The notes under the pieces: generated by a model
Told to the model about the DNA's origin: nothing
The model's database searches: none
The model's input: the letters and a program-made list of their open reading frames with translations, nothing else
Program-made: the position numbers and the translations under genes
NCBI GenBank assembly: GCA_029717555.1
Contig: JAMDHS010000034.1
Span: 124,001 to 188,000, forward strand
Origin: Peribolospora baueri
Taxonomy: Eukaryota
Reading direction: 5' to 3'
DNA: 64,000 nucleotides
Part shown: positions 18,965 through 44,085 of the stretch, in pieces
How the letters are laid out: every line of letters begins with the position of its first letter
Position numbering within the stretch: the stretch's first letter is position 1

Positions 18965-21900
18965 ATGACAGCTCAGAAGCGAGTCGTCGTCACGCTCTCC
19001 TCAGTGGGATTCGACTATGTTCCCCTCCTCACCGCACTCTTCGACTTGGTCGACCAGCTTCATGCGTCCAGCAGGCTTGGACGTCCGTCTGCTGGACCGG
19101 ACGTGGCCGCCTCGGGTTCCGCCAGCTTGGTCGGGCCTTTCCTCGAGACAGTGTTCCACAAACTTGTGCAGGACATAGAGTCCATCGAACACGACATCTC
19201 CCTCGGAAGCGCAGATCCGGCGCCCTGGTCGCCGCGAGGGCGGTACGGTGACCTTCTATCGCTCGCCAAGGAGGAGCGTTCCCGCGGGTTCACTAGCTCT
19301 GCCCTTTGCGGCGCCATCTTCTGCACAGCCCAAATGGCAAACTACCTCGCCTACGCTGCCGACTACCACCAGTATGTCGTCGTCGCACCCTCCTCCAACG
19401 ACTCTACCCTCAAGCCCGGCATCGTCGCCGGCTTTTGTGGCGGCATGCTGCCGGCGTACGCCATCGCCCAGTCGGAGGATGTGAACGAGCTATTCGAGAA
19501 CGGCGTTCGCATCGCCCGCATGGCCTTTTGGATGGGCCTCCAGAGCGATCGCACAGCTGCTCGGTTGAAGGCCACGGGCGTTTGGCGCGATTATTCCAAG
19601 GAGCCCGAGAGCTGGTGCTTAGCCCTCAACGGCTGGGACCTGGGTGAAGCCCAGTCATTCATCGACCGATTTAACGCAAAAGTGAGCGACCAATGGACGC
19701 AAACGCATTTTCTTTCCCCTTTGGGTACTCACGTGTCATCCACCTTTCTGCTCTTCTTCTTCTAGCGGTCTGATGCTTCTGCCAAGGTGTTCATCTCGGC
19801 CGTGTCGGGACCTCGTGTGATCTCCATCGTAGGCATCCCCAGCTCGCTCTCGGCCTTGCAGCTCGTATTTTCCCGGGATGCGGACGAGGCAATGCGAAAG
19901 GACCCGAAGAACAACGCTGTCAGGCGCACGTTCAGGGTGCCCATCTATACCCCTTATCACTCCGATGCTCTCCTCCGCCAAGGAGCAGACGATTTCCTCC
20001 GCTCGATCTCCACTCTGGGACTGGCCGGGCACCCCGGCGATGGCTCGGTACAAGTCGCAGATGACCCAGTGCTCCGAGCGATCGTGTACTCGACCATTGA
20101 CGGCAGAAGGATCGCACCTACGGACGACCCAAAGGCCCAGGTGCCGGCTCGTCTGACCCCGAAGGACGTCGCCGAAATGATCTGCTGCAACCCCTCCCGC
20201 TGGGACCTCGTCGTCGAGTCCATCGTCCGCGACGCTGCGCACGACCAAGCCGCGTCGACCGGACAACCTCCCACGCTAACGGTGCTCAATCTCGGTCCCG
20301 GTGGCCGTCTCGGCCAAACCGTGTGCAAGGCGCTAACCAAAGGCGGAGTCGCTTGCGAGCTCGTAGATCTCGAGGCCGCCACTTTGGCTTCCTGCCGCAG
20401 GAAGCTGGACTCGGCCTTCGACTCTGCCAGAGCGTCCACTGCTGCCGACGAGATCGCCATAGTCGCCCAGGCATGTCGGTTCCCTGGCGGTGCAGACACC
20501 CCCGAAGGCTTCTGGAATTGGATTTCTAGTACCCAGACGTTCTTTGAAAAAGTGAGTGTAATCGTCGACACGAAAACGTGAACGCGCCGTCGAGGTCGTC
20601 TCGCTGTCGTCCGTCGCGTTTGGCTGATATCACACCTGCTCTCGCTTATTCCTCGTCTCCTCCAGTTCCCGAAAGACCGCTTCGTCATCGACGATTACAC
20701 TCACGATGCACGGCCAGGTCAAGCGAACACCTTGGACGAGAGGTGCACGTATGGCAGTTTCATTCGTAACATTGACCGATTCGACCCTCGCTTCTTCGCG
20801 CTTAGCCCCCGCGAGGCCGAACAGACTGGTGCGTGATGCCTTGACGCTGCAGGGGGTTGGGTCGACATCTCGAAACCCATCTCATTTGGCTGTCTACCAT
20901 CCTGTCGGTCGTCCGCCTCTACTCAAATATGAATGTCCGTAGATCCTCAACACCGCTTGCTCACGATGGCCGCGTATGAGGCCATGGAAGCGGCCGGATA
21001 CATGCCCGACAAAACCAAGACGTTCATGCGCGATCGCATTGGCACGTACGTGGGTTCTGCACAGGACGACTATCGTGACAACGCCTCGAACGACCTCGGC
21101 GCCTTCATCATCACGGGCAACGCGCGCGCCTTCATGCCCGGACGCATCTCGTTCCTTAACAAGTGGATCGGTCCCTCGGCTTCAGTGGATACGGGCGAGA
21201 TGAGCTCTCTCACTGCCATCGAGACGGCCTGCGACGCCCTACAGGCGTTCAAGTGCGACACTGCTCTCGTTGGAGGCGTCGCGATCTACACTTCGCCGGC
21301 CATGTGGGTCGGCTTGGACAAGGCCGGCCTCCTAGCCCACTCCGGGCCTGCCCAGCCTGCACCCTTCGACGGCAAGGCTGCGGGCTACGTCCGCGGCGAA
21401 GGCATCGGCGTCTTGGTGCTCAAGCGTCTCTCTGACGCCCTCGCAGAGGGTGACAACATTCTCGCCATCATCCCTGCCATTGCTTCCAACTTTGCTGAAA
21501 CTCACTGGCGCTCCCCCTACGGCGAGTTGTCGGTCGAGCGCGACGCCCTGCAGGAGCGACAGACCGTTGCCAGGGAGCAGTTGCTTCGTCGGGTGTTGGC
21601 GGAGGCCAGGGTGCCGCCAGAGCAGGTCTCGTACGTCGAGTGCCACGCCAGCAACTCTGCGCAGGACGAGGCCACCGAGCTCGAGGCGGTGCGCAGGGTC
21701 TTCGACGAGGCGCGAAGCGAGGGATACATCTGGCTCGGCTCGGTCAAGGATCACCTTGGAAATGCGGAAGCGGTAAGCGTTCTTATTTGTCTATTGGCGC
21801 CCCATCGTCATTTCTCGCTTCTCACCCCGTTTCCATTCAACTCTTTCTGTAACTGCGGCGGGTCCTCAGGCCTCCGGAATGGCATCTATCTTTAAAGCGA

Positions 21901-24900
21901 TTCAGATGCTCAAGCATCGAAGCATCCCCCCAGAGGCCACACAGCGTTCCACGCCCAATGACGTCCTCGCAAAGTTCAAGAATGTCAAATTGAACGACAC
22001 TGGCAAACCCGTCCAATGGCCTGCCGAAGACGACAGGGCGACTTTAGTTATTAACAACTATAGCTTTGGCGTGAGTTCCGGCTCCTCCTTGTTCTCATAC
22101 CTTTACAGGCTCCTTGCAGGGCGACAGGAGTTGAAGAGATCGTGTTCGACCTTTCGATGCTTTTCACGTTCGATTTTTTCAGGGAGGCAACACGTCTATG
22201 CTCTTGAAGGCTTGGTCCCAGCCCGAAATCCCTGTCGTCGAGGATCCTCGCAAGCATCATGTGGTCATCGTCTCGGCCAAGACCAAGGGCTCCCTCCAGC
22301 GGCAGAAGGAACGGTGGATCGACTTCCTGACTAGGGAGATGACTGTGCCGGACGGACCGCCTTTCTCTTTGGCCGACGTCAGCTATACCACGACAGCACG
22401 ACGCAACACCACTTACCAGCACAGGGTCTCCTTCGTCACCGACTCCCTGTCCAAATGCATAGAGAGCCTCAAGTCAGCCAACGCCGTGCTGGCCCCTTCC
22501 GCTTCGAAGAAACCCAAGGTGGCGTTCTTCTTCTCGGGCCAAGGGAGCCAATATCCTGGCATGGCCCGCCTACTCGCCAGCGACTCTAGCGCTTTCCGCC
22601 AACTTCTCGAGACGTGCGATGGCATCGTCAAGTCTTTCGGCCGGCCCGGATTCTTGGACGCCATCCTTCCTGATGACCAGGGACAGGCTGCACCTCTTAC
22701 CGACGAAACGACCCAGACGGCCATCTTTTCGATCCAATATTCCCTCGCCAAAACGCTCGAGTCCTGGGGGGTCGTGCCAACGCTTGTCGCTGGGCATAGC
22801 CTCGGTGAATACGCCGCCATGGCCGTGTCTGGGGTGCTCAGTCTTCGCGACGCCTTGTTCCTCGTCTCCACCCGTGCGCATCTGCTCGTGACGCTTTGCA
22901 AGCCCGGCACGGCAGGCATGCTCGCCGTTGCCGCTGACTCGGCTTCTTGCAAGCGCTACATTCGGGACGCCGGCGTGGCGGTCGGCAGCGCATCGGAGCC
23001 GGGTTGTGAGATTGCGTGCGAGAACGCTCCGGAAAGCACGGTTGTTTCTGGTCCCAAGGAGGCCGTCACCAAGCTTGCCGCTCATATCAAGCAAGCTGGA
23101 AGCCATCGTTGCACCCTTCTCGAGGTTGCCTTTGCATTCCATTCGGCTTCAGTACAGCCCATCGTTGAACCTCTTCGTCAGGCGGCTCAAAAGGTCCAGT
23201 TCAACGCGCCCGGGGTGCCGATCCTGTCCAATGTCACGGGCGACTTCGTGACCAAAGCTGGCACGTTCGGGAGCGACTACCTTTGTCTGCATAGCCGCAA
23301 CACCGTCCGTTTCGCTCAAGGCCTGAGTTCGGTCTTCAATATGGCAAGAGAGGTGAAGAAGAACGGGATGACTACCGAGTTGAACATTGGACTTGAAATC
23401 GGCCCTCACCCGATCGTCCTGCCCATGGTCAAGGAAAGCGTCGGCAAGGCCGATCTGGGCGCGTCGAAGGGCCTGCTAGGGACTCTGTTGCCGACGCTGC
23501 GCAAACAGACGGACGACTGGGCGACCTTGTCGGGCACGTTGAGCTCGATATACCAGGCCGGGGTGCCGGTCGACTGGTTCGAATTCCAGCGTGGCTTCGG
23601 TCGCCGCCGACTCGTCACCCTGCCCAGCTATCCGTTCGAATCCGAGCGGTATTGGATGGACTTTCGGGATCGTGGGATGATCGACGTGGGCGCTGAAGTA
23701 CTCGTCGGGCAGGCCAACGGCGTCGACGAAGACGAGGAATCGGAGGTGGACGACGAGGAGGGTGAAGAGGATGAGTTGGAGGAGGACGAGCAAGATCCCT
23801 CGGTTCTCCCCCCGGCTGAACACACCTTCCTGCGCGCTTTGGACATGGAGTACGTGAATGACGGTGCGGGCGCAACGTGTCTCTTTGAAGTGGTCCCTGG
23901 GCCCGAGCTCGAAGTTTTGGTCCGAGGCCACAGGGTGGGCAACATGGCCCTCGTACCGGCGGCCTTGAGCGGCGAGCTTCTCTTCCAAGGCGCACACTAC
24001 ACGCTCAGGCACTGCGTCGACGAAGCGGCCGTTGCGGACTCGCCGCTGGAAATCAGCAACCTGCACATCACGGGCCCGCTCGTCTGGGGGGACAAGGAGG
24101 CGGGCGACGAGGCGCCGCGGGTGTTGGTTCGCTGTGTCGCCGACATCCAAGCTCGTGTGGTGTCATGCATGCTGTCGTCCGAGTCTGGCAAGCCTAGGGC
24201 CGACGGGACTCGGCCCACTTCTCTGCACGCGACTTGCAGCGTCGCTTTTGGCGATCTTTCTGTTTGGAAGCGCCAATGGGCGGCCGTGGAACCGCTGGTG
24301 CTACCGCAAGCGGCGCGACTGGAGTCTGACGGGGAGGACGTGGAGGTCTTGCGCACCGAGCTGGCCTACGAGCTTTTCTCCAAGGTGGTGTCCTACGACA
24401 CGGCTTACTGGGCCATGGACGACGTCCGGATGACGCCGACGTTTGGCCTTTGCACTGCCAGATTGGGAGGCAAGCACGGACACAACCCAGGAGGAGCGGT
24501 GGGAGGGCGGTACGTGTTCAACCCGCTCACGATGGACGGTACGAGTCAACTGCCGGGCCTGATGGCCAACGTGCTTACGCAAGACGCTGACGACGAGCAC
24601 GTCTACATATCCGAGTCGTGCGGCAACGCTCAATTCGGTCCGCGCGTGCTCGAAGCGGAACGGCGGGGAGAGGCGCTGAAAGTGTTGTCGACGCTGCGTG
24701 AAGCTCACACGGACACGGAAAAGTTTGTGATCGGCGACTGCTATATCCTGGGTCCGGATGACGACGACGAGGGGGGCAAGGCGGGGGGCGACAAGGTTGC
24801 GGGGCAGAGGATCGTAGGCACGGTCACGGGCTGCAAGTTTAAGCTCTTCCCGACACGAGGCCTTCACGCTGTGCTGAAGCAGACGCTCACTGCCCGGCGG

Positions 24901-24909
24901 ACGGCGTAG
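18965..24909 (+). CDS. Non-reducing PKS 'A': SAT-KS0(inactive)-AT-PT, with no ACP or TE
   Basis: SAT GFCGG (19430-19444) and PYH (19958). KS fold with DTGEMSS in place of DTACSSS (Glu 21197-21199), ECHASNS and HLGNAEA. AT FSGQGSQ, GHSLG (22792-22806) and AFHS (23134-23145). PT GHRV (His 23929) and MDGTSQ (Asp 24535). Stop TAG at 24907-24909 directly after the PT. Introns at ~19682-19765, 20552-20665, ~20830-20942, ~21773-21869 and ~22071-22182. Confidence 0.92.
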
Positions 24910-25874
24910 AGGCAGGGAGAGGAGGCCGGGCGGGGCGACGTAGATGTTTCCCATTTGCCTTTTTGGTTTCACTTTTCGATATATTTTGGCTCGTGATTGA
25001 ACACACGCTTCTCTTTCTGATACGATGCCCGGCGGTCGAATAATATACGGCTATGGTTCGCCATCCTTATTTCCTCGCTCGCAAGCAAGGCACGCAACGA
25101 GGCGTGGTCCCGCGTCGCCCTGGCGTCCGTCCCATCGAATGAGCAGCAGCGCACTTGAAAACGCGCGTGCTTGCGAGAACACCGTGTCTTTGCACATGTT
25201 CCTAACCTCTCAAATGGATCATCATCATCGCAGATCTGTATCGTCCGCACGCCATCGCCATCGCCATCGCCGTCGCCGTCGTCGTCGTACTCCGCTCGCT
25301 CTGCGTCGGCCCGTGCGTCTGAGCGCGTGTCTGTGCGCATCACTCCGCAGCATCTGGCCGCAGCACCCCACGTGAGTTACTCTGGCCCGCTTCGTTCCGC
25401 TGCTGGGCGTGGTTTGGTCGTTCTTTACGCTGTGCCGTCTGGTAGTGAGTGAGCACCGCCATGGAACAGGACATGACGTGGTAAAGCTGCTCAGCGCTCA
25501 TCAAACACGCCCAGCAACGCCCGGTGGAGACGGCTGGCTGACCGCCCCTCGGTAGACGTGACCAGCGAGCGCCCCGCTGCCCAGCGGACCCTGACCCTGG
25601 CCAATCGACGACCCTTGTCTCCTGCGACTTTACATCAACCCCGTCGTCCTGCGTCCGGTCGGGGACGGAGCGACGGCGCACACGTTCGGCGGAGATGGAT
25701 CGGACTGACGTGGCCATCTCACGCAGCTCTCTACTCGGCACCCACCGGACAAAAGGGTTAAATACGCCACTTTTCGATGCCCTGTTCACCGTCTTGTCTC
25801 CCCATCCCTCATCTCTCTCACACACAAGCCTTCATCTTCATACCTCGCAGCGTCTCCACCCACTCCCAATCAAC

Positions 25875-26368
25875 ATGCCCGTCCTCAGCTACCGTGAGTC
25901 GCGGCCGCTGGCTCGACGGTGGACGGATCACTTGATCCTTGCTCGTCTTTTCCTTTTCTTACCGTCTTCATTCCTTCCTTTCCTCCTTCAGTCCTCTTCA
26001 AGTACAAGCCCGGCACCTCGGCCGAGACTATCAAAGAGTTCGCCCAGCGCAGCCAGGCCCTCCAGACCGCCGTCGCCAGTGACATCAACGTCATCTCCAT
26101 CCACGCCGGCCCTCTCCTCCCCCTCCCTGCCAACCTCGAGCGCGGCTGGCAGGCGGCCCAGGCCGCGACGTTTGCGAGCAATGACGATCTCGTCAAGTTT
26201 GCCAAGGACCCCGCGCACGAGGAGTGAGTCCGGTGTCTTTTGAATGTCAAGTGAGAATGGCTTTTTTACCTCTCCTCCACCTCGCTTTCCTCCTCCTCCG
26301 ACAACAGGCTCAAGAAGGCCCACGCCGTCCACGTCGAGGACTTTATCGCCAGCCAGATCGAGTACTAA
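25875..26368 (+). CDS. Dabb (stress-responsive alpha/beta barrel) protein, candidate polyketide cyclase, 3 exons
   Basis: Spliced product MPVLSY-LVLFKYKPGTSAETIKEF...GWQAAQAATFASNDDLVKFAKDPAHE-ELKKAHAVHVEDFIASQIEY*, with the Dabb hallmarks VLFKxK and F.S...L..(Y/F)..(H/D)PAH. Confidence 0.85.
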
Positions 26369-26487
26369 CTAGGTGGACGGGGACCGACGAGGCTGGCCGA
26401 TTCGTAATATCGGATACCCGCACATCTTCATTCATGTTTCCACCTAGCTCCCGTTTCCAAACGTCATCCTTTTCATCAAAGTCACGT

Positions 26488-26725
26488 GTTGGCATGCCTC
26501 TTCTCCAATCGGATCCCATTCGACCGCTCGAGCTGCTTGCTTGCGCGGGAGAGGAGGGTCTGAAATGATTAGATGTATAAGACGTGCTGTGCAATCCCCA
26601 TTCAATCATTCCCCCGTCTACTCGCCGTGTTGGCATGCCTCCTTTTCCAATGCGGCTCCCATCGACCGCTCGAGTTTGTCCGCTCGAGCTTGCTTCGAGA
26701 GGAGGGTCCGAAATGACTAGATGTA
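26488..26725. repeat. Imperfect direct duplication of ~95 bp downstream of the Dabb gene
   Basis: GTTGGCATGCCTC...CCAAT.CGG.TCCCAT.CGACCGCTCGAG...GAGGAGGGTC.GAAATGA.TAGATGTAT occurs at ~26488 and ~26628. Confidence 0.75.
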
Positions 26726-27303
26726 TTACGACGTACGACATGCCGTGCAATACCTGGGTATTCAACCGTTCCCCCATCTCCTGCCACGCATCGCATCTCT
26801 CTCGGCGAGGTGATGATGATGGATGGATGGGCCAGTCGGAGTCGACTCGAGTCGAGTCCGGCACGCGTGGGCGGTTCTGCCTATATTCCTCTCGAGACAC
26901 GAAGAGCCAGCAGAGCCGCGGACTGCGTTGCGTAGCATGTGTCCTCTCTCCTCTCCTCTCCTCTCCTCTCCGGCCGTTTGTGTTGCCCCATTCAACCGAA
27001 GTCTTTCGATCGCTCGCTCGGACGTGAACGAACGAACGAACGAACGAACGGGATGCTCGCCGATGACCCGCTCTACTCGCTCAATTTCCAATCATCATCC
27101 AGGCGAATGCGAAGATTCCACATCGGCCGAGACGCACATTGCGTTGCGCTGCGGAGGGAGTGATAGGATAAGAGCCAACGGTGGTGGTGATTTATGAAGA
27201 CGGAGTGGCCGTCTATGGAAAGAAAGAAAGCGAATGAACAGCGGGGCTACGGGCGTATAAAAAAGACACGTACTAAAAACAGATAATAAAGACAAATCCC
27301 CCG

Positions 27304-29156
27304 TCACGCCTCGTCGTCCAACACCGCCAACCCCTCCACCACATTCTCCCTCGCCCACTCGTCCATTCCTGGCACCTTGTATCCGTACCACGAGTCATAC
27401 GTGCCCGCGTTCCTTCCCCACAGGGCAAACTTCATAATCCACTTGATCAAAAAGAACGCCACGGGCCCCTTGTCTTTCTTCGACGCTCCGCGCTTGTTCG
27501 CCTCCGTTAGGATCATCTCCGCCCGCGGCGAGCGCGCTTCTGTGAACGCCTTTAGCGCCGGTTCCAGGTCGGCCACGGTGGGGATTGACGAGACCTTTTC
27601 CACCGTTGGAGTCATTGTTTGGACGAGCGGGCGCAAAAGGTAGGCCAAGTAGGCTGCGTCTTCGAGCGCCATCGAAGCGCCCTGTCCGGCATGTGGAGGC
27701 GTAGCTGAAGGACGTCGTAATGCGGCGGAAAGCAAGGAGCGTCAAGGAGTGAGGTCCGGGACGCAAGAAGACGGCGAGACATACCATGCGCGGCGTCGCC
27801 GATGAGAACCATACGCTTCGAGTGCCACTTGTCCAAGTTCTGCACCTGATACACCGGTAAGAGCTGAGATATACCGTTGGCGTCCGCCGCCTGGATGACC
27901 TCGGCGATGGGCGTCGGCCTGATGAAAACAAAAGCGAAAAAGAAAAGCAAATGAGAGGGCAGATCACCAATGAAGACCACAGGGATGCCAGCGGCGGCGA
28001 ATTTCTGCAGATGATGAGCAGTCAAAGCCCCCCTAGACGTCCATTCGCAAAGACAAACGGCTTACCAGCTTCCGCAGCGCTCCTTGACCTCGGCCATGGC
28101 CTGCTCGTGCGACATTCGGCGCCACTCGTCCTTTTCTCTTTCAGAGCTCGAATAGTTCGCCGCCCTATCGACACGTTAGAAGAGTAGAGGACGGGACGCG
28201 GCGATGCGAACGAGGTAAGGAAAGCTTTCGGCGCCAATTGTTCCTTTTCCCCATCTCTGCACTCACCACGCAAACCGTTTTCCAGCTGATCCGATGCGGG
28301 CGAGGCCAAAAAAGCCAGAACGGCCGTGGGTGATGCGGAAAGGGCAATGATCGTTGACGTAATCCTTGATGCATGGCACTTGAGCAACGTCCATGATGCC
28401 GATCACGCTGACCAAACCTTCGAAGACGGGATGGGGTGGAGCTACCCCTGCGGCTTCGGCGATGCTGGTGGGCGGGGAAGGGTATGGGTTAGGAAGGAAC
28501 TGAAACTGAGAAAGTGGCGTGCCCGCACTCACCTCTTCCGGACGACGCTCCAGATGCCGTCCGCACCGACGACGAAATCGGCCCGGTCCTCTTCCAGCTG
28601 TCCGTTCGTGCGCCAGGTGATCGTGACCCCCTCGTCGTCCTCGACGAGGTCTTCGACTTTGACTGACCAATGCACAGCAATCTTCCGACGTTCCACCTCA
28701 TCCAGGAGCAGGTCGAAGAGGGCCCGTCGCGTGACCATGCCCGTGGGCTGGCCGTGGCGCTCCTTATTACCGAGCCGAGCCTGACCGATGTAAAAATCGG
28801 TGTAATCGAGCATGTCCAACGTGCGGATTTCCGAGATTTCGTTGTCCTTGGCGAACAGCTTTTGGGCGAGCCCCAACGAGTGGATCACCTCGACTCCGTT
28901 GGGCGCAAGAAGGAACGGACCGCCTTTGGGAATCTCTTCGCGTGAGCCGCGCGACTCGAGCACGCTCACAGAGCAGCCGAGACGGGTAAGGAAAACGGCG
29001 GCGGCGCACTGTCAGAGGGCAAAGAGAGCAAGGTGTAAGGAAGTGAGCAACGGTGGTCCTGTCTTCGCGTCCCTTCAAGCGCCGTCCTACTGCCACCTTC
29101 AGTCCACTCACCCCGCCGATGCCAGCGCCGACGACGACGACTTTCATGGGAGCCAT
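27304..29156 (-). CDS. FAD-dependent monooxygenase (group A, FAD_binding_3), multi-exon
   Basis: VVVVGAGIGG Rossmann motif, VVGADGIWS (DG motif), LIGDAAH...PHAGQGASMALEDA (GD motif). Confidence 0.92.
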
Positions 29157-32714: not shown

Positions 32715-34309
32715 ATTGGTGAGGAGGTTGATGATTCTAAAACAAGAAAAGTAGAAAAACCATGAAGGAGCCGAATATAAGGAAAATGAGCTTTGCCCGA
32801 GAAATCAGGACACTTTCTATGCGAGACGCCAGGCACACTCACATGTGACGTGAAGTAGGTTGGATTGGGTGGGACTAGAGAGAGATGTCGGACCCTGAAA
32901 GGCGACAAGAACCAGCGTCCAGCTTTGAACGGGAGAAGAAAGCAAAGGACCAAGGGTGACTATATTGCGAGATGAGCGAAGTGGGCAGGTGACTGGGGTC
33001 GTCGGTCTCGGCTCGGCTTGTCTTTCTCGACCAGGGAGAGGAGGCAGGAAGGAGGGAGGGCAAGGGTAAGAGGAGACGGGGGGTAGGGAAGACGCATCTC
33101 GGAAACGGGGATGCTCCGAAGGCACTGGTATTTGAATCATTCGACGACTCTGCCTCGACTCTGCCTCGACTCGGACTCGACTCGGACTCGACCCAAGGCC
33201 CGACGTGGTCGAGGTGAGGGTGTAAGTTTAGACGAACGCGACGCGGACCGTGCACGGACTCTTACTGCGTACCGCCGACTCGGTCCGCCATAGCCCCGCA
33301 TTTGTCCGTCCCTGGCCGAGCTTCTCCGCCTCCAGCCGCCATCACTGCCGTCGGTGACGCCGCGTTCCTCTTACTCCGTCTCGCATGCCACCATTCTCCA
33401 GCCGGCGAGTCCATGCGTACATGGCGCACGCAAATAGAAAGGCAGCACTGTCCACGGCCATCCTGACCCTGAGCTCGTACAGTTGGGAGCAGATGATCAG
33501 CATTTTCGACGCCAATCCGCGCGATCGCGGATCGCAGAGTGATCCGTTATCTCCTTGTTTGTTCGCAGCCTCTTCCGACCCCGAGTGTTCCTTGCGATAG
33601 ATAGATGATGGTCATACCCGTCATCCATCACCATTTGCAGCAAAACCGCAGCGGGGCAGAACTGTTTACTCTCGATCTGCGCCGCCGGGGCAGCGCTTCC
33701 GACTGACACAACGCCCGAGCAGGATAGCTCACTCCGACCACGGGAGCGGATGAGAGAGCGCAGCATCGAAGCACCGAAGGAACCGAGCAAGATATCACCT
33801 TCTCGCCTCGCCGCGCCTTGTCGTACCCAATTGGGACTCTGTGTAACAGTGAGGCGTGCGTTCTATGGGCGCTCGATTTGTAACCCGGCGCTCACGCGGC
33901 CTCCCAGGTCGAACTCCCAGGCCAGCCCAAGGCCTCGCGAGGTCAGTCCTCAAGCATATAAGGGACGAGGGCCTGGGCCAATTTTCGGGGACCCTCGTTC
34001 TTCGCATTCACTTCCATACTCAACCCAGTTTACCGCCTGAGCCACGCAACGTCCATCCAGCCTTCCGACATCGTCTCCGTCCTCTTTTCGTCGCCCATTC
34101 TTGTTCTTCCTCAGGTGAGAACTCATGCACATCGTTGTTGTGATGGGCGGACGAAGGGCATGTCGATCGCTTTAACATGCTTTCTTATCCCGCTTTTCCA
34201 CCTATTAACCTCCGGTCCCGTCTCGTATCGCACGTCTCTCCCCTCTCTCTTGTCGCTCTGCGGCCCATCCGTCCCGCAACATCACACGGAACCACACCAG
34301 AAACGCAAT

Positions 34310-34735
34310 ATGGCCACCATCGGTAGCAAGCCCGCCGCGCGCAGCCCAGAGCAGCTCGAGGCAAACAAGGACCTAATCCGACGATTCTACCACAAATTCG
34401 GCGTGTTGCACGACTTCACCGGTGCAGACGAGTTTCTGTCAGCCGATTACAAGTCGTTCCGCGGGAACGGCATGATCAACGATAGGGACAAGTGGCTCAT
34501 GGTCCTTCAGAAGGGCATCGCTACCAAGATGCCCAACTTCAAAGCCGAGCTCCTCCGCGAGGTCGCTGAGGGAGATTACGTTTGGGTGCTCGGGCGGATC
34601 ACCGGTTCGAGCGAGTGTCCTGAGGGAAACATCACGCTGAGCGTCGATATCTATCGCTTTGGGGAGGATGGTAAGATCGTCGAGCACTGGGACGTCCAAC
34701 AGTGGGTCGATCCCAGCGTGGAGCACGCCAAGTGA
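34310..34735 (+). CDS. SnoaL-like / NTF2-like protein (candidate polyketide cyclase)
   Basis: 141 aa: NKDLIRRFY...VAEGDYVWV...VDIYRFGEDGKIVEHWDV, the typical SnoaL C-terminal signature. Confidence 0.88.
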   Translation: MATIGSKPAARSPEQLEANKDLIRRFYHKFGVLHDFTGADEFLSADYKSFRGNGMINDRDKWLMVLQKGIATKMPNFKAELLREVAEGDYVWVLGRITGSSECPEGNITLSVDIYRFGEDGKIVEHWDVQQWVDPSVEHAK

Positions 34736-35581
34736 GGAAAAACGGGATGGGTGGAGCGGTATCGGTCCCGGTCCTCTGGTTACAGGTTTTCCATTCCGAA
34801 GAAGGGCATGAAGAGGGGCGACTCGGTCGCGACAAGAAACGAAGGTGGCTACCATACCACTACGGATCCGGAGACATGGCGATCGCTAGTGCTCTTGTGC
34901 AGAACCAGTATGCTCGATGTCTGGGACGGGAATGCGGTGCCATTGATAGACGGCCTCTGCCTCCTGTCTACTGTGCGCAAGACTGAATCTATGACCTCCA
35001 GATCGTTCCTTCGTATTGTACCTTCATGTCATGATGAATGGCTTCCGGTTGCCATGTTATCAGCGACTGGGCGAGCGAAACTGTCGGACAAACGACGAGT
35101 AAGCATGTGCTCAGCCGGGTCCGCAGCCGATGCGATTCCTCTTGGACGCATCGCCCGTCAGCATCCGTTCCTCCGCCCCGCGCCCTGCCGTCGTGCGTCC
35201 AATTCAATTCGCCCGGCTGCTTCCGCGCCGCCGCGACACAGCTGGAAACTCAAAACTCGTTTCGTTTCGCGTCGCGTCGTGTCCCAGCGTTTCTGTGTGC
35301 TTTGCGAGAGCAATAGGACGCATTTCGACAGGAGCCATGTCAATGGATGCAATGCAACTGTGCTAGAGAGCGAGAGTGTACATGGATGGGGGTGCGCATC
35401 ATGCGTCCGCCAGGGTCTCGAGAATGGCAGCCCATCTTCATGCGTATATCTAGATCAGCGATCGACCGACGAGCAGGCGGATGGGGACGAAGGAATGATT
35501 ACATCCAAGTAAATGTGAAAGAGCGACCTGCTCGTCCGGAGCAAGAGGGACCCATCGTGAAGGACGACGTGAGAGGAACAA

Positions 35582-36222
35582 CTAGCGAGCCATTTGGACC
35601 GCGAGGTCGTACACGCCAACGAAGAAGCAGATGGCGCTAAGGTAGATGCGGGCGCGGTGCCTCGAGTCCCAGAGACGGATGAGGTTGGTTACGTTGACCT
35701 CGTCTATGTACCTCTCGTTCTCCTTTTTGAGCTCATTCTTGAGCCGGAACACGCTCGGAAATATGAAGGCGACCGTCAGAGGGATCATGGCGACCATGGC
35801 CCCGCCGGCGACCCAGAGTGCCAACCGGCTGTTCCACCCGCCTGCGGAGACGCGCGGATCAATCCATCCGGCGTAGAAGTATCCCAGCGCGCCCACCCAG
35901 CCGATTGGCATCCACCGCTTCACCGAGAGGTCGAAGTTGTCGTTCCACAGCTGTACGCGCTGCCGCGGGGTGAGGCCCTTGCAGCGGAGGATCATAGGGA
36001 CGATCACGGTCGACGTAGAGATCGTCAATCCTACGGCAAACAGAGTAAAGACAGTGCGACGTCAATAACGTCAGCATACGTAAGAAGAACAAGATATTGT
36101 AGAGACACGGTGAGCGAGAGAGACAGGGGGAGCGACTCACCGAACCAGGCCCCGCTGCCTGCAATTCCGATGGCGCGAGCCAGCTCGGGCCGGGACAGGC
36201 CGACGCAATCCGTGATGGACAT
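35582..36222 (-). CDS. DUF1772 / anthrone-oxygenase-like membrane protein, 2 exons
   Basis: Exon 1 MSITDCVGLSRPELARAIGIAGSGAWF; exon 2 GLTISTSTVIVPMIL...QLW...MIPLTVAFIFPSVFRL...LIRLWDSRHRARIYL. The hydrophobic helices and the terminal W...H..R motif fit DUF1772. Confidence 0.72.
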
Positions 36223-37129
36223 GGTGAGCAAGAAGATAAAAAGAAGGGGAGGCAGGGCGCTGTCGAGTTGGATAGGTGAGGGTTGTTCGCAGCTAGTTGC
36301 GCGTCAGAATTACGATGGTGATGACCTAGAAGTGGGTGATATGTGAGCCACATCGAGCGCCGCCAACTTATACCTTGCCTCGTACCGTCCGTCCTCACAA
36401 GATAGCTTCCTTCTTACTACGCCCACACGCTCATCTATCTCACTCCACTCTATCTCACTCCACTCGGACCTCTGACGCCGGCAGCCATCGCTATCCAGCG
36501 TGGCCGGTCGCCCGACTCTCTCGCCGGACCTGGGCGTCCAGGACGGCCTCGCATCGAGTGCGCAGGCCCAGTCGAGCGGACCGAGTCCAGCGTTGTACGA
36601 ACGCATGTTTACCGTGGCCCTCCCTCCGCTCCTTCCATCTGCCCGGCGCCGAGGAGGCCCGCGTGAACCCCGAGTGAAGTGCCGACGGCGCACGGGCCGC
36701 TTGTGCGGCAGGCAAGAATCATGTTATGTCACGTGCCTCCCCCCGGCGCACTCATGGCGCGTGGGTACGCCATCATAGCCGGGAGACAATACTCGGAGAC
36801 GATGGGCACGCAGCTCTTCTTACTCCGTGGAACCCGGCACTCATCTCGCAAACAGCCCTCGCTCCAATCCCTCCGCTCTATGGCGCATTCTATACTGCAC
36901 AGTGCATACCGTTCGCCATGGTGTATCAACTATGGCTCGATAAAAACCGGACGGCCGTCGGGGCTTCATTGACGGGCCCCTTACCTTTCCGTCTCCTTCC
37001 TATCTCCTTGATCCTGCCCTCTTTATATCTGCCTCCTCTCAACTTGGCTGGATACAGCTTATAGACTCTTCACTACCTTACCCCCGTCAATCCAGTGAAT
37101 CGCTCGCTGGACGAGTTTTCGAGCCCCCA

Positions 37130-40100
37130 ATGACCGGCCACGATGACGAAGCGTGCCATGCAGCACTTCCGGCCTTGCGCGACTTCTTCATCTTCTCTTC
37201 AGATTTCAACTCGGTCGATGGTTTTGCCATGCTTCAAGAGCGGTGCTGCGATCCCACCTCCGCGCCCGGCAGCGGCGACGCCCTCGCGCTGCTCTTCTCC
37301 CGTACTTGGTCCGCCCTGCAGGAAGAGTGTCGGCGCTCCTCCGCCAACCTCTCCGGCCTCGGACTGGAGCCTCTCCCGGTCGAGCTCGCTGAGCTCTTCC
37401 AGCTCATCTTGTCCAAGGGTACGTTCCGAGCACAAGAGCTGGCTAAACTAGTATTTGGTCTGGCCTTGCAGACCATCGTCCAAGTCGGCCGGTATGTCTT
37501 GCATTTGCTCGGCGCCCGCGCCGCCCTCCGACCTCGTCAGCCGGGCCCCGCCCACCAGATGCCCACCATCCCGAACCCGTACTTTGCAGGCGTCGGGTTG
37601 GGATTCTTGGCCAGCGTCGTTGCCGCCTCCAGTACCGCCGACCTCGGCCACGACTTTGTAGGCGAAATCGTGGACAACGCCGTCCATGCTGTCCGCTTGG
37701 CTTTCCGCGTCGGTCGAGCGAGTGCGGCACGCGAATCTCGAGAGGGATCCGACTCCGTCGGAAGGGCCTTCGCTTTCCTGAGTATGGAAAGTGCTGACGC
37801 TGCACAGGTGAAGGCGCTTTGTGACGAATTTACCAAGTCTGATGTGAGTCCTAAGGTCCTACGTCGAGGCAGGCAAGATTCCGTCCGCGATCTTGGCGCT
37901 TGTCCCTCTCCTAATCATACCTCTGTTTATCTCGGCGATCAGGCAACCTCTCGGTTGGCCATTTTGGTCAGCCAGAGCTCCCTTAAAGTTCTCGTCGTTC
38001 ATGGGACTCATTTGGACTTGCAGCGGCTCCAAGCAGAGCTACAATCTCGTGGATGCAGGGCGCAGATGGATGCCTACCCTATGCCGTTCTACTCCTCGCC
38101 CATCAGCCAGGAATACGTTTTCTCTGCGATGCTTGATGAGGAGCGGAACGCCTCCCCCGCCTCTGCGAATGTTCGATTCCAGCTCAAGTACCCAGTCGCA
38201 TCGCTCGTTTCGGGTCGCCGCCTCGCACCCGGCACCGCCTTGGACGCATCTGCTGTCCTTGCCTTCGGGCTCGGTTCAGAATTGTCTGCTTTGACGTGGG
38301 ACGAAGGACTCCTTGAGCTTGCCAAGCTCGAGGAGAACCCGCTTAGGAGCCTCATGATCGGTCACGGCGCCAACAACAAGGGCAAGTACGACGCGCTCTT
38401 GGAGCACGTCTTGGATACCGTCAAGAGCGTGCATCCCCACGCCGAGCATTTCCCTGCGCCGGCGATTTTGTCTCTAAACAACCCCGTCGCTGAGGGCCTT
38501 TGCAGTCCCGACTTTGCCTCCATCCTTCGCCCAACCCCGGCCGAAAGTGTGGCCATTGTAGGCATGTCCTGCCGGCTGCCGGAGGCCAACAGCCCAAATG
38601 AGTTCTGGGACATGCTTATGAAGGGAGTCGATGCCTGCAGAGAGGTGAGGGTTGTTTCCGGAAATTGGAGCTGCCAGACGTGAGGAGCTTGCCGTTGTTA
38701 ATGTTTCCATTTCTGAATCAGGTCCCCGGCCATCTGTACGATATCAATATGTATTACGACCCTCAAGGCGCCGCTCGCAATCGCATGGGAGCCAGGCACG
38801 GCAACTGGTTTGACGGCATCGTTCCCCTCTTCGATCCGGAATTCTTTGGCATCAGCGACGAACAGGCGCTCCACATGGACCCGCAGCAGCGCATGGCCAT
38901 GTTGGTCGCATTCGAGGCTTTAGAACAAGCTGGTTTCGCACCTGAGATCGCTGACAGCGCCTGGGACCGCGAGTCGACGGGTGTCTTTGTCGCCGCCACC
39001 TGCGACGATTACCGTGAAAACCTGATGTCGAACATTACCCAGCACTACCTAGAGGGCAACTACCGCCAGTTCCTTGCTCAGCGGCTCTCTCGTCACTTTG
39101 GTTTCTCGGGGCCCGCGCACACGCTCGATACCGCCTGCAACGCGTCCTTTGTCGCTCTCGATGCGGCCTGCACCCAACTCGTCCGTCGCAAGTGCTCGGC
39201 AGCTCTCGTGGGTGGCGTCAGCGTCCTGACCCAACCTCAGGTGTCTGTCGGTCTCGACAAGGCGTACTTTCTGAGCCGTACCGGCCAGTGCAAAACGTTC
39301 GATGAAGGAGCGGACGGGTATTCCAGGAGCGATGCGGTGTCATTCATCGTTATCAAAAGGCTCGAAGACGCCATTGCCCACAATGACAACATATTGGGCA
39401 CCATCATCGGCATTGGAACGAACCACAGGCGAGTTCATGACGGAGCCTTCGACATTCAGCATAAGACACGTGAGCATTGATCGCTGACCGCCTCGTCTTT
39501 CACCACTCGACTCGTGCTCTGGTATCATACAGCGGCGAATCTCACTCGATCACCCATCCGCACGCCCCGGCCCAGCAGGCCCTGATGACATCGGTCCTGC
39601 GGTCGGCCAATGTCCAACCCTGGCAGGTTGGCGTGGTCGAGGCTCACGGCACCGGCACCCAAGCAGGTGACTGGAACGAGCTTACTGCCATCAGAGGCAC
39701 CTTCGTGGAACCTGGCCGTGACCAGGACAACATGATTGCGGTCACGTCGTCCAAGGCGAACATCGGACACAGCGAAGGCGTAAGCATATCATCCACCATG
39801 ACTCTTGCATTTCCTATGAGCGAGCCCCAGGATCCAAACTGATGTCCCATGCTCTTGCTTCCATCAGGCTTCGGGACTGGGTGCGCTAATCAAGTTGTTG
39901 CTCATGGTCAAGCACAACACGGTACCTCCTCACATCGGCATCCGCACCAGGCTCAACCCCCGTCTCGAGCACCTTCTCAAGGACAGGATCGTGGTCGCCA
40001 CGAATGGGCCCATTGAACTGCCCCGCCCCAAGGGGCAGGAAGAGTGTTATACCTGCGTCAACAACTTTGGCGCGGCTGGAGGTAACACTAGCTTAATCCT

Positions 40101-43100
40101 CCGCGAACATATTGCTGAGCCCAGGACGACAAGCAGCTCCACCGTCACACGTCATCTCGTCATCGTCAGCGGTCAGACCACCACTGCCCTCGAACGCAAC
40201 GTCCGCAACATGATCGACTACGTAAAGGCCGAGGGAGACAGGCTTTCTTTGCCCGATCTGAGCTACACCACCATGGCGCGACGGGCGCATTTTAAATACC
40301 GCAAGGCTTGCCTTGTTTCTTCGGCCGCAGAGCTGTGCGAGGCCCTGGAGACCACCGCAGTCGTGGAGCGTACAAAGAACAACTCGCAGTCGCAGGTCGG
40401 CCTTGTTTTCCCGTCCTTTACCGCCTCTGCTGCTACGGTGTTGGATGCCGGCAGGGCACTGTTCCGTGCTTTTCCCACGTTCCGCCACTACGTGCAGGTT
40501 TGCGATAGCGTTCTCCAGGGTCTCTGGCAGCCGGGCGTTCTGGACGCGTTCGGCGAGGGAAAGGCTAGCACGGAGGAGGTGATCGTCGGTTTCGTCATTC
40601 AGTATGCCCTCTTCGCGACACTCGAGGACTGGGGCGTTCCTATCCACACGGTCACCGGGGCGGGCCATGGCCAACTGTTGGCCATCGTGGCGTCCAAGGC
40701 GTCTACTGTCGAGGACGCCCTCGCGATTTTGATTGCGGCTCGCGACGTCGACTCGACAGCTTTGGAGCAAGCGGTGTCTCGCATCAACACATCCGTATCC
40801 AAGCGCGAGCTGATCTCTTCTAGCTGGTGCTCTGTTGACGGGACGCTTTCGGCTGCCGCCATCGCAGAGACTTTCAACAAGGACGGCCAGGGAACCGTCC
40901 CGGACATCAAATTGCCCGCCGGCATAACGTGGTGGTCGATGGGCGGCCAAGGCCTGGCTCACGTCATCCCTGGTACGACGTCTCTGCTAAATGCAGGGGA
41001 CACAACGGTTTCTGTTTTGGAAGCTTTGCGAATGGCGTTGCTGGCGACTTTGCCTGTGCGCTGGAACGCGGTGCAGGCAGAGCTGAACCCTGGAGCAAGG
41101 TTGTCCCCGTTGGCCTCCTATGCATGGGACTACGGCAGCTTCTTCGTCCCATACGCGGATAGGGCGCTTGTTCTGCCTTCGTGGTCCGACAACCCCAAGA
41201 GAGCTCAAGTCGGCAAGCCGAGTCGTGTGAAACCTCGCCGTGCTCCGAAAGCGAGAAAGCTGCAGTCTCGCAAGACGGGCATCCGCAAGGCTGCCCGGGT
41301 TAGTCCCGTTCTGGGCTTGGTTTCTACTCGGGGCAGCTCTCTGGTCTTCGATCTCGACCTGAAGACGGAAGTTGTCGAGCAAAACTTCACGGCGTCATTC
41401 CGGGAAAAGCGATACCTCATGGCAGCAGAACTCTTCACTGCCATGGCCGTCGAAGCGCTACAGTTCCGTCACGCTTCCGATGAGCACAGACCCGGCGTCG
41501 ACGTGCACGGTCTGGAGGTTCTTCAACCCGTAGCGCTTGACAAAGCCAGCGGCTTCTTGCGGCTTGAACTAGCCCCGCTCCGCGATGGCTGGCACGAGTG
41601 CACTTTTTCAGAGGTCAGCGGGGAGGAAGCGTTTGTTTGTGGCCACTGCTCTGTCCGGACGGCGTCTTCTTCTGACTTCAAGGAGAGCTGGGAGCCTCTG
41701 GTCGCCCTGGTTAAGGGACAGTTGGTGAACCTCCGAAATGGAGCAGGCAACGGTAGCAAAATGGGGGCCACCCTTTTGTACCGTTTCTTGTCCAAAGTTG
41801 TGACGTACCCGGCATCTGTGAGTGCGCGCCCGTTCTTCGCGGCCTCTTGATCTCGACTTTCTGCTCACCATCTTCTTCTCATGCCCGAACAGGCTCGAAT
41901 GCTCAAGTCGATGAGCTTCTCGGTCAACCGGAAGTCAGCATTGGCTTCTCTACAAGCTTCTGCGCAAGATCACAGCTGGCAGCGCAAGCAAGGAACGGCG
42001 GTCGTGCCCGCTTCGGCCATCCTGGGCGTTGGGCAAGCCCTGACTGTGCTCGCCAATCCCACGGCCTCTTCGAGAGACGACGCGCTTTACCAGCTAACGT
42101 CCATGTCTATGCAGGTATCCGAAGCTCTCAGCGTAGCTATGAGCAAGGACAGGAAGGTCGAGATTGTCGCAGCCATGTCCGAGCATCGCTCCGAGGGCGG
42201 CGTTGAGACTGTGTCTAGCGCCTACTTTGTGGACGCCCAGGATGGGACCATCTATGGCGCTCTGCGAGACGTTCTCTTCAAGCCGATCCAGAATCAAGCA
42301 GGGCCGTCTCGCACCACAAAGGCTTTGCTGCCACGCGTTACTCCTGCGGCCAAGGTCAGCTCCCCCCAGACACCCCTCGCCGCCGACAAGGTGTCCTCTG
42401 GTCTGGTTCTCACGCAGACGCAGTCTTCAACCAAAACCGCCTCGCCACCTCCGGTCTTGGATGCGGAGCCAGTAAAGGCCTCGCCGTCCGTTGACAAGCT
42501 TCTGGCGACTATGCAAGACATCATCGCCACGGAGACGGGTGTTGGCATCGAGGAGCTCTCATCTGGAAGCTTTGCCGACTTCGGAGTTGACTCTCTCATG
42601 TCTCTTGCCATCCTGGGACGCATGCGAGAGATTGCGCCGTTTGAGCTGCCCGGGTCACTGTTCATTGACTGCGAGACGTGGCAGGATCTTGAAGACTACC
42701 TCAAGGAACAACTGCCTTCGAGCAGCGTGGAAGCCACTACCGTCTCCAGCTCGCCGTCGGCTTCGCCCGCCTCGTCCTCGGCCGAAACCCTCTCTACTGC
42801 CGCCACTAGTGCAGGGAACGACGTAGTTCCTTCACAATCCTCCAGCCCGTCGGCTGCAAGCGTTTCCGAATGCATGGGTACGATCGCGGAGGTGATCTCT
42901 TCGGAGACTGGCGTCGACCAAGCAGACCTCGCTGGCTCAGCTTTCGCGGATGTGGGCATCGACTCTCTCATGTCTTTGGCATTGCTCGGTCGTTTGCGCG
43001 AGCTTCTTCCATTCGAGCTACCAGGCTCTCTGTTCATCGACTGTGAGACGATGGACGACCTCGAGGAGTTTGTGGTCAAGCAAGTCGCCGACCAACCTCC

Positions 43101-44085
43101 AAGCGCCGCAATCACAACTCCCGAAGCTGAGAGCAAACCTGCCCCTTCTGCGTCGGCCACGCATCCTTCCTCCATCGAAGTCGAGCGTGTGCTCGAATCC
43201 CCAGGTCGCGCTCTCTTGCTTGGAGGTTCGAAGGACTCGACCCATACCCAGCCTCTCTTCCTCCTTCCGGACGGTTCCGGCACCTCGGCCGTCTATCAGC
43301 ATCTGCCAAAGATGGATCGTATCGTATACGGACTCAACAGTCCCTTCCTTCTCAAAAATGTTGGACCGTGGACGAAGGGTGTGCCGGAGATAGCGGCCCA
43401 TTACATTGCTCAGATCCGAGCCAGACAACCGCACGGACCGTACTTGCTTGGAGGTGAGCTCGCATTGGAGCCTTGCAAAAAGCCCGGGTCATCGGTCATC
43501 GCGCCACGTCGTGTGCCCTTGGCTGACCCATCTGTCATCTTATGTCTTCACTTAGGTTGGAGCTTCGGCGGTGTCGTCAGCTACGAGATCGTCCGCCAGC
43601 TGGCCTGCGACTCCGAAGTAGTCAAGGGCCTCATTTTGCTCGACGCTCCCTGCCCCAGGAACCTGCCGCCCCTGCCGCACACGATCATCGATTGGGCCAC
43701 CGAGTCGGGCGCGCTGAATGGGCTCGGGATCAAGAAGTTCAGCCCGGAAATGATTTCCCACTTCCGTGCAGCCATCCAGACCTTGTCCGACTACGATCCA
43801 CCGAGTCTGTCGCCGGACATGGCGGCAAAGACGAAGGTCGTCCTCATTACGGCCGTGGAGGGCGTGGGGGCGGACCCGAACGAGGTGGTCAACACCAACG
43901 AGACAGTCTCCTGGCTCATGCACAGCCGGGCTGGTCTCGGCGCGAACGGCTGGGAGCGTCTGCTGGGCAGAGGCAACGTCCGGGTCGAAGAGATTGGCGG
44001 TAACCACTTTACGATGATGAACCAACCTTACATCGGCGAGTGGTCGAGCGCTATCAGGCGCATCATGGATGACTGGTGCATCTAG
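37130..44085 (+). CDS. Non-reducing PKS 'B': SAT0-KS-AT0-PT0-ACP-ACP-TE
   Basis: KS triad intact: DTACNAS (Cys 39136), EAHGTGTQAGD (His 39645), KANIGHSEG (His 39768). ACPs GVDSLMS (Ser 42592) and GIDSLMS (Ser 42964). TE PLFLLPDGSG, G|WSFGG (Ser 43561) and GNHFTMM. SAT motif is GVGLG (37589-37603), AT motif is GAGHG (40657-40671), and the PT region lacks the His and Asp motifs. Multi-exon. Confidence 0.92.

Follow-up and report, generated by a model that had tools for sequence, protein, structure and literature searches.

To our knowledge, the iterative polyketide synthases (PKSs) of fungi are taken to be homodimers in which every domain is carried on one chain. In the norsolorinic acid system of aflatoxin and sterigmatocystin biosynthesis, the synthase PksA is accompanied by a dedicated fatty acid synthase (FAS), HexA/HexB, and by the anthrone oxidase HypC. 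A live ketosynthase (KS) paired with a dead homologue is familiar from the type II PKSs, in which KS-alpha is joined by KS-beta (chain length factor, CLF), a conserved KS homologue without the catalytic Cys; CLFs are small discrete proteins, typically with Gln at the Cys position. Condensation-incompetent ketosynthases (KS0) also occur in the bacterial trans-acyltransferase (trans-AT) PKSs, where it is usually the His of HGTGT that is missing from KS0, the Cys being retained, and where the AT comes from another polypeptide. Here two genes, termed PKS-A and PKS-B, are described from a stretch of 64000 nucleotides of Peribolospora baueri (GenBank assembly GCA_029717555.1, contig JAMDHS010000034.1, positions 124,001 to 188,000; this whole stretch is referred to as the window, and all coordinates are counted from its first letter). 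For every catalytic motif, one and only one of the two predicted proteins has the intact form, and PKS-A and PKS-B combined hold one intact copy of each catalytic function of a non-reducing PKS (NR-PKS).

The closest described system is the pair Pks3 (UMAG_04105) and Pks4 (UMAG_04097) of Ustilago maydis, which belongs to the mtf1-controlled melanin cluster as presented in a preprint (Reyes-Fernandez et al., bioRxiv 10.1101/2019.12.28.889758). According to that preprint, no product at all is left after deletion of either pks3 or pks4; expressed singly, the two genes give none, and their co-expression gives orsellinic acid. Pks3 is reported there to be without an AT, and the AT was proposed to act in trans from Pks4 (bioRxiv 10.1101/2019.12.28.889758). 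The two proteins are called "heterodimers" in a review of 2023 (PMC10098057), and a survey of 2026 found the U. maydis melanin cluster in 0 of 15 other Ustilaginaceae. Pks3 and Pks4 work together, and therefore the two-subunit NR-PKS has already been published; a first-pass annotation of the window had pointed to such interdependent incomplete PKSs in U. maydis, and on the strength of the preprint this precedent exists. As to the Myb regulator named for them in that annotation, the preprint sections consulted speak of "putative transcription factors" only. As far as the preprint describes the domains, Pks3 resembles PKS-B (no AT, carrier and thioesterase present) and Pks4 resembles PKS-A (AT present, no acyl carrier protein). 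The domain pattern of the Pks3/Pks4-type two-subunit NR-PKS was accordingly found here as well, with PKS-B lacking a functional AT and carrying acyl carrier protein (ACP) and thioesterase (TE) domains, and PKS-A carrying an AT and no ACP. The terms "cysteine", "active site" and "inactive" have no occurrence in the preprint text (bioRxiv 10.1101/2019.12.28.889758), the analysis of which stops at Pfam domains. Neither a conserved dead-KS partner in a fungal NR-PKS nor the cluster context found here was described in the literature searched, in which the U. maydis work was represented by its preprint form; the journal text may treat the KS of Pks4. Apart from the U. maydis work, these searches yielded a paper on basidiomycete NR-PKSs that have no SAT (PMC10401856).

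Gene models for PKS-A and PKS-B were predicted from splice consensus and from alignment to orthologues or to the nearest database proteins. PKS-A (18965-24909, forward strand) is composed of six exons (18965-19681, 19766-20551, 20666-20828, 20943-21772, 21870-22070 and 22183-24909) separated by five introns of 84-114 nt, all of the GT-AG type. The encoded protein (1807 aa) has the order SAT-KS0-AT-PT, with Pfam matches to SAT, ketoacyl-synt and Acyl_transf_1. Its spliced frame holds one stop only, at the end; a further, break-like stop at 19763, although in frame, is intronic in this model. The protein aligns end to end with two A-type orthologues, from Tilletia horrida (OC842_000385, P0001, 1757 aa) and Violaceomyces palustris (PWN49474, P0002, 1798 aa), and its C-terminus coincides exactly with the end of the product template (PT) domain, no ACP or TE following. 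Among the 88 six-frame open reading frames (ORFs) of at least 70 aa at 24304-37061 (PKS-A stop to PKS-B), none gave a Pfam match to PP-binding or Thioesterase.

PKS-B (37130-44085, forward strand) likewise has six exons (37130-38644, 38722-39428, 39533-39779, 39868-41817, 41893-43453 and 43556-44085). The protein (2169 aa) was assigned, partly by Pfam, the order SAT vestige, KS, AT vestige, PT vestige, ACP, ACP, TE. Four of its five introns (75-104 nt) are of the GT-AG type; the fifth (39429-39532, donor GCGAGT) is a GC-AG intron inside the KS, and the junction obtained by splicing it is exactly the GTNHSGESHSITHPHAP of the orthologues. The only stop in the spliced frame is terminal, and a break-like in-frame stop at 41848 lies inside the intron 41818-41892.

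In PKS-A, three domains are catalytically intact. The SAT (18965-20368) keeps the Cys (GFCGG, 19430-19444) and the His (TPYHS, 19949-19963) and matches the canonical SAT profile at 99.9% in hhalign. The malonyl acyltransferase (AT, 22501-23475; Acyl_transf_1, E 4e-46) keeps GHSLG (22792-22806) and AFHS (23134-23145), and the Arg motif TRA is also present. The PT (23836-24906) keeps its His (GHRVG, 23926-23940) and Asp (MDGTSQ, 24532-24549) and matches the canonical PT profile at 99.9%. The ketosynthase (20444-22200, with four introns within) is a catalytically dead KS0: its motifs read DTGEMSS (21188-21208), CHASNS (21641-21658) and LGNAE (21755-21769), so that Glu stands at the position of the catalytic Cys and Asn at that of the second His. 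In a search of solved structures with the KS exon, for which the matches include PksA (8cg4) and CTB1 (6fij), this Glu and the Asn of GNAE face the Cys and the second His of a PKS ketosynthase. PKS-A thus carries a conserved KS homologue without the catalytic Cys, as in a KS/CLF pair.

PKS-B holds the remaining functions. A ketosynthase predicted to be of the active type (38540-40113, Pfam) carries DTACNAS (39127-39147), HGTGT (39645-39659) and GHSEG (39765-39779). Two ACPs (42484-43083; two stretches matched by Pfam PP-binding) carry GVDSL (42583-42597) and GIDSL (42955-42969). The chain ends in a TE of the thioesterase/Claisen cyclase type (43201-44082, interrupted by the intron 43454-43555; Pfam Thioesterase) with Ser (GWSFG), Asp (LLDAP) and His (GNHFT). 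The other regions of PKS-B are vestiges. In the N-terminal SAT vestige (37130-38539; Pfam SAT, E 1.4e-8), GxCxG is replaced by GVGLG (37589-37603) and the His motif by MPFYS (38081-38095); the N-terminus matches the canonical SAT profile at 96.7% (E 4e-10, 184 columns, hhalign). In the AT vestige (40399-41268), GHSLG is replaced by GAGHG (40657-40671) and the His motif is gone. No Pfam AT match was obtained for this vestige; hhalign aligned it with the canonical AT profile at 96.1% (E 3e-9) over 98 of 326 columns, in the first third of the profile (positions 13-115). The PT vestige (41269-42303, with the intron 41818-41892 within) has lost the catalytic His and Asp, and matches the canonical PT profile at 96.3% (E 1.8e-9, 228 columns). 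Two linkers are kept in PKS-B: that between KS and AT (Pfam CurL-like_PKS_C) and that after the AT, in which SYAWD...VPY is found at 41116-41154 (motif SYAWD..VPY.DRALV.PSWSD).

By Pfam and hhalign together, every region of PKS-A and PKS-B is homologous to NR-PKS domains; each region matched its canonical domain at 96-100%, and cross-domain controls remained at or below 39%. The vestiges of PKS-B match the canonical SAT, AT and PT profiles, and PKS-B therefore descends from a complete SAT-KS-AT-PT-ACP-ACP-TE synthase. That the AT His and both PT motifs are missing from PKS-B, as claimed in the first-pass annotation, is correct for the residues; the domains themselves are not simply absent, since degenerate AT and PT remnants are recognisable by hhalign.

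The catalytic positions were read from an alignment of 18 rows, consisting of the spliced PKS-A and PKS-B and of 16 database proteins, 11 of which are ordinary NR-PKSs. These 11 reference proteins, all of them outside the A-type and the B-type, show the canonical residues without exception: Cys/His/His in the KS, and GHSLG in the AT. Every motif that had been quoted for PKS-A and PKS-B is present and sits in the catalytic columns. The central claim of the first-pass annotation, that every catalytic motif is intact in only one of the two proteins, was borne out by this alignment and extends to the orthologues. Neither protein is a canonical single-chain NR-PKS, PKS-A being without the KS Cys, the ACP and the TE, and PKS-B without the SAT Cys, the AT Ser and His, and the PT His and Asp; the complement is exact across six functions.

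Homologue searches were run with the last exon of PKS-A and with the vestigial exon of PKS-B, and the best matches of each came from the same two fungi. The B-type orthologues are T. horrida OC835_002947 (P0121, 1661 aa) and V. palustris PWN49478 (P0124, 1535 aa); among further assembly proteins, P0396 is an A-type fragment and P0127 is of the B-type. All four A-type ketosynthases carry GNAE (second His replaced by Asn), together with Glu (three of the four) or Asp (one) at the Cys position. The complete A-type proteins (3/3) are without ACP or TE, and the SAT residues GFCGG and PYH of PKS-A are kept in P0001 and P0002. In 4/4 B-type proteins the KS reads DTACNAS/HGTGT/GHSE, the AT motifs are missing, the TE triad is complete and one or more ACPs are present. 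A search with the KS0 exon against representative proteins was uninformative: the 150 matches listed were all proteins of 4061-7920 aa with 4-6 KS stretches each.

The genes for the A-type and B-type proteins are clustered in three lineages. They lie 12 kb apart in the window; in T. horrida their locus tags are 5 apart on the same contig in three of four assemblies (the fourth being fragmented), and in V. palustris their accessions are 4 apart on one contig of 26 kb. These arrangements bear on the possibility that the two enzymes serve separate pathways or partners and that their complementarity is coincidental, PKS-B being loaded by the FAS malonyl/palmitoyl transferase (MPT) or by another AT and PKS-A working with a carrier encoded elsewhere. 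The FAS clustered with the pair (see below) indeed has its own acyltransferases and ACP, and basidiomycete NR-PKSs devoid of a SAT can work, as reported in the part of the literature that treats them (PMC10401856). We nevertheless consider such independence highly improbable, given the co-clustering in three lineages, the similar branching of the A and B clades described below, the exactness of the complement over six functions, and the lack of any other ACP or TE ORF between the genes.

Conservation is unevenly distributed along the two chains. KS0 is the most conserved domain of PKS-A, with 55% identity to the orthologues (60% between P0001 and P0002), followed by the AT (49-51%, and 59% between P0001 and P0002), the PT (41-47%) and the SAT (39-43%). 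In PKS-B, the KS (59-63%), the TE (57-58%) and the second ACP (47-58%) are well above the AT vestige (24-27%, with deletions in the orthologues) and the PT vestige (15-23%). The gene models of the B-type orthologues (3/3) begin exactly at the KS, the SAT vestige being absent, so that PKS-B of the window is the least reduced of the four B-type proteins. Judged by these identities, the vestiges of PKS-B look like tolerated, shrinking spacers. The dead domains had been proposed to reflect structural retention rather than decay; this view holds for KS0 (55-60%, the best-conserved A domain) and largely fails for the vestiges of PKS-B, in view of their 15-27% identity, their deletions and the missing SAT.

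Constraint was also assessed with contigs of a sister organism, which are approximately 2.5-2.8% divergent and colinear from the 3' half of PKS-A through PKS-B. These contigs showed 539 substitutions and 108 indels; of the substitutions, 40 were listed, all in PKS-A at 22455-23762 (the AT domain and just beyond), and 25 of these 40 are synonymous. Purifying selection on PKS-A was thereby shown, scored around the AT domain only.

The dead parts of both genes are still coding sequence. On the basis of composition, the chance of an open frame is 9e-7 for KS0, 2e-6 for the SAT vestige of PKS-B (N-terminal 470 residues) and 2e-9 for its AT and PT vestiges (610 residues), and for each of the three regions 0 of 5000 shuffles kept the frame open. 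The alternative two frames of the dead regions contain 5-17 stops. G+C at third codon positions (GC3) is 0.67-0.73 in the dead regions, as against 0.44-0.51 at second positions (GC2), the same as in the live domains. The statement that both genes keep open, spliceable frames through their dead domains was thus confirmed, and beyond chance. It might be argued that both genes are decaying pseudogenes of two once-complete NR-PKSs in a non-functional cluster, considering the loss of catalytic residues in four domains and the retrotransposon gag remnant 1 kb upstream of PKS-A. The ten consensus-site introns without an internal stop, the frames open far beyond chance, the recurrence of identical substitutions in distant genera, the synonymous excess against the sister organism and the 47-63% identity of the remaining domains to the orthologues leave this explanation with a negligible probability.

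A KS tree computed from 47 rows by quick search under LG+G4 was used to examine the origin of the pair. Full support was obtained for the A clade as well as for the B clade, and the window copy is the first branch in both; the matching branch order fits co-inheritance. The B clade is sister to a PKS of Pseudozyma flocculosa (SH-aLRT support 97), whereas the A clade, with its long stem, falls outside the remaining fungal NR-PKS ketosynthases. In the approximately unbiased (AU) test, an exclusive clade of A and B was rejected (p 0.0033), with the reservation that the clade was named after the tree had been seen and that A is long-branched. Moreover, the SAT and PT vestiges of PKS-B match generic NR-PKS profiles at 96-97%, compared with 6% and 15% for the SAT and the PT of A (the A profile consisting of 3 rows). 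On the basis of the KS tree, the AU test and this profile mismatch, we reject a scenario in which A and B arose by a tandem duplication of recent date and then lost complementary parts. To judge from the sequences, either two different NR-PKS lineages would thus have become interdependent, or the duplication would be very old.

The nearest outgroup of the B-type ketosynthases, P0049 (P. flocculosa PFL1_03751, 1947 aa), is itself incomplete: it has the order KS-AT-PT-TE, no PP-binding match by Pfam, and no Cys in the column of the SAT motif. Partner-dependent incomplete PKSs may be more widespread in smut-related fungi; a similar remark was made about U. maydis pks1/pks2 (PMC13208730).

The locus is a real, conserved two-gene split NR-PKS, of a two-subunit concept already known from U. 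maydis. That PKS-A and PKS-B are two subunits of one NR-PKS is, in our assessment, probable. Their functional interdependence is estimated to be quite likely, because the complementarity is conserved, the genes are clustered, and the U. maydis pair gave a product upon co-expression. PKS-B would provide the sole condensing site (KS Cys-His-His), both carriers and the releasing TE; PKS-A would load the starter through its SAT (Cys-His) and malonyl through its AT (Ser-His), and would control cyclisation through its PT (His-Asp). The dead KS of PKS-A most likely pairs with the live KS of PKS-B in place of the usual KS homodimer, and the ACPs of PKS-B could then reach the SAT, AT and PT of PKS-A. 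The resulting enzyme would correspond, among type I PKSs, to the KS/CLF pair; it would be primed with a fatty acyl starter from the clustered FAS, and its anthrone product would be oxidised by the putative anthrone oxygenase of the cluster.

With regard to quaternary structure, which the sequence does not decide, we modestly favour a KS:KS0 heterodimer over two homodimers meeting in trans, because KS0 is the most constrained part of PKS-A and because PKS-B keeps the linkers of the KS platform. In the alternative arrangement, A2 (held together by the dead KS) and B2 (held together by the live KS) would be interdependent homodimers that meet transiently, A serving as a trans loader and cyclase on the ACPs of B in a manner resembling the trans-AT systems. 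The origin of KS0 and KS in different KS lineages speaks for it, and conservation of KS0 equally fits a homodimer scaffold. A mere dimerisation scaffold, on the other hand, would not have to exceed every other domain of PKS-A in conservation, and the retention of the KS-AT and post-AT linkers in PKS-B while the AT core decays suggests that the canonical KS-centred architecture still matters; we regard the two-homodimer arrangement as unlikely.

Going beyond the heterodimer preference itself, it is conceivable, if doubtful, that an obligate KS:KS0 heterodimer constitutes the conserved core of an iterative type I PKS in which KS0 has gained a separate, non-catalytic function. It might, for example, gauge chain length, dock the ACPs or hold the SAT/AT/PT platform, and an acquired role of this kind would explain why KS0 is the best-conserved part of its chain. 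As part of the same tentative proposal, the pair would be older than the split between the Tilletia and Violaceomyces lineages and would have been assembled from two NR-PKS lineages.

Several points weigh against the reading of PKS-A and PKS-B as a heterodimeric, fatty-acyl-primed synthase. KS0 and the KS of PKS-B do not appear as sister lineages in the tree, which leaves no ground for supposing that they inherited a homodimer interface from a common ancestor. The conservation of KS0 is equally compatible with an A2 homodimer. The SAT, AT and PT vestiges of PKS-B appear weakly conserved or deleted in the orthologues and hence say little about a fixed quaternary architecture. The gene structures of PKS-A and PKS-B are predictions, and the fatty-acyl-primed anthrone chemistry is deduced from neighbours assigned at the level of Pfam. 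Finally, the 120 matches listed for each of three homologue searches, drawn from candidate lists limited to about 8000, include none from U. maydis, an absence that is weak evidence.

The window as a whole is fungal-looking, with approximately 59% G+C and short introns. A fused beta-alpha fungal type I FAS is encoded on the reverse strand at 1-11359 and runs off the start of the window. Its Pfam domains are FAS_N, SAT/AT, Fas1 helical, FAS_meander, MaoC, Acyl_transf_1, Fas_alpha_ACP and FAS_I_H; FAS_I_H (2085-4082) is the lowest of these, and no Pfam match was obtained below 2085. KR-like and KS-like stretches were discernible by eye below 2085 in other frames, so the FAS gene continues there through introns. 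The clustered FAS is the likely source of a fatty-acyl starter; as in FAS-primed NR-PKS systems, a dedicated FAS is clustered with a SAT that has a Cys-His dyad, namely that of PKS-A. Between PKS-A and PKS-B, an anthrone oxygenase-like ORF of 159 aa (35585-36061, reverse strand; Pfam Anthrone_oxy, E 3e-7, 30.9 bits with a cutoff of 27.3) and a SnoaL-like polyketide cyclase ORF (33962-34732, forward strand; Pfam SnoaL_2, E 2e-8) were found. The remaining tailoring and transport genes between or beside the PKS genes comprise a Dabb barrel, two FAD-binding mono-oxygenases and an MFS transporter, at 25898-26224 (forward) and at 28532-29011, 46033-46950 and 30528-32804 (all reverse). The FAS, the anthrone oxygenase and the other cluster genes, together with the Cys-His SAT of PKS-A, suggest a fatty-acyl-primed anthrone or anthraquinone.

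Downstream of PKS-B, at a distance of 4 kb, an intron-split gene with two Myb repeats (48328-49709, forward strand) is a candidate cluster regulator. Farther on, two genes on the reverse strand (51265-54867 and 56731-59797) resemble P450-reductase fusions (p450, flavodoxin, FAD_binding_1 and NAD_binding_1); they look self-sufficient and of the fatty-acid hydroxylase type, and may act on an alkyl side chain. The gap between the FAS and PKS-A (7.5 kb) has a lower G+C content (52-55%) and no long ORF. The retrotransposon gag remnant (17434-18012, forward strand) precedes PKS-A by about 1 kb, and further upstream lies an ORF for an FSH1-type serine hydrolase (14910-15482, forward strand). In the contigs of the sister organism, depth reached 481 in the bin 25068-25734, compared with about 77 around it (approximately 6-fold), with many loose ends at 25250-25287; the excess and the loose ends point to an element, immediately downstream of PKS-A, that is repeated or of low complexity.

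Compared with the described systems, the locus combines known traits in a different arrangement. The U. maydis cluster contains pks5, aox1, vbs1, omt1, pmo1, cyp4 and deh1, whereas a FAS, an anthrone oxygenase, SnoaL and Dabb proteins, FAD mono-oxygenases and P450-reductase fusions are found here; given this difference in cluster content, a product other than orsellinic acid is probable. With the norsolorinic acid system the locus shares a Cys-His SAT NR-PKS, a dedicated FAS and a gene that Pfam assigns to the anthrone oxygenase family in one cluster, but PksA is a homodimer whose single type of chain carries every domain, and the present synthase is divided between two chains. Relative to the type II KS/CLF pair, Glu or Asp is found instead of Gln (4/4), the dead KS is embedded in an 1800-aa SAT-KS0-AT-PT chain, and the heterodimer is a proposal only; the Gln at the Cys position that is associated with decarboxylative priming in KS/CLF was thus found in none of the A-type proteins. 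The trans-AT PKSs are similar in that a condensation-incompetent KS is retained and the AT is supplied by a separate polypeptide; they are modular and bacterial, whereas the present system is iterative and fungal and has the Cys itself replaced. As in the alpha and beta subunits of fungal type I FAS, the catalytic domains of one synthase are spread over two polypeptides, but the FAS subunits are without dead duplicate domains, while PKS-A and PKS-B each keep vestiges of the partner's parts. Both the trans-AT systems and the two-subunit fungal FAS are also invoked in the U. maydis preprint (bioRxiv 10.1101/2019.12.28.889758).

To the two-subunit concept, the present locus adds a dead KS defined at the level of residues and strongly conserved, vestiges that document the route of reduction, and a FAS-associated context. 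Such pairs are productive, as the U. maydis precedent shows, and with the present locus the type is now represented in further smut-related fungi and in a different cluster, associated with a FAS. In genome mining, the scoring of PKS genes one at a time would label both genes as defective or misassign the product. The pair offers a natural system in which to study what the KS dimer contributes beyond catalysis, how carrier domains gain access to partner domains across subunits, and how megasynthases turn mutually dependent. If the obligate heterodimer were true, its coupling to a dedicated FAS would constitute a FAS-primed aromatic polyketide pathway in a basidiomycete.

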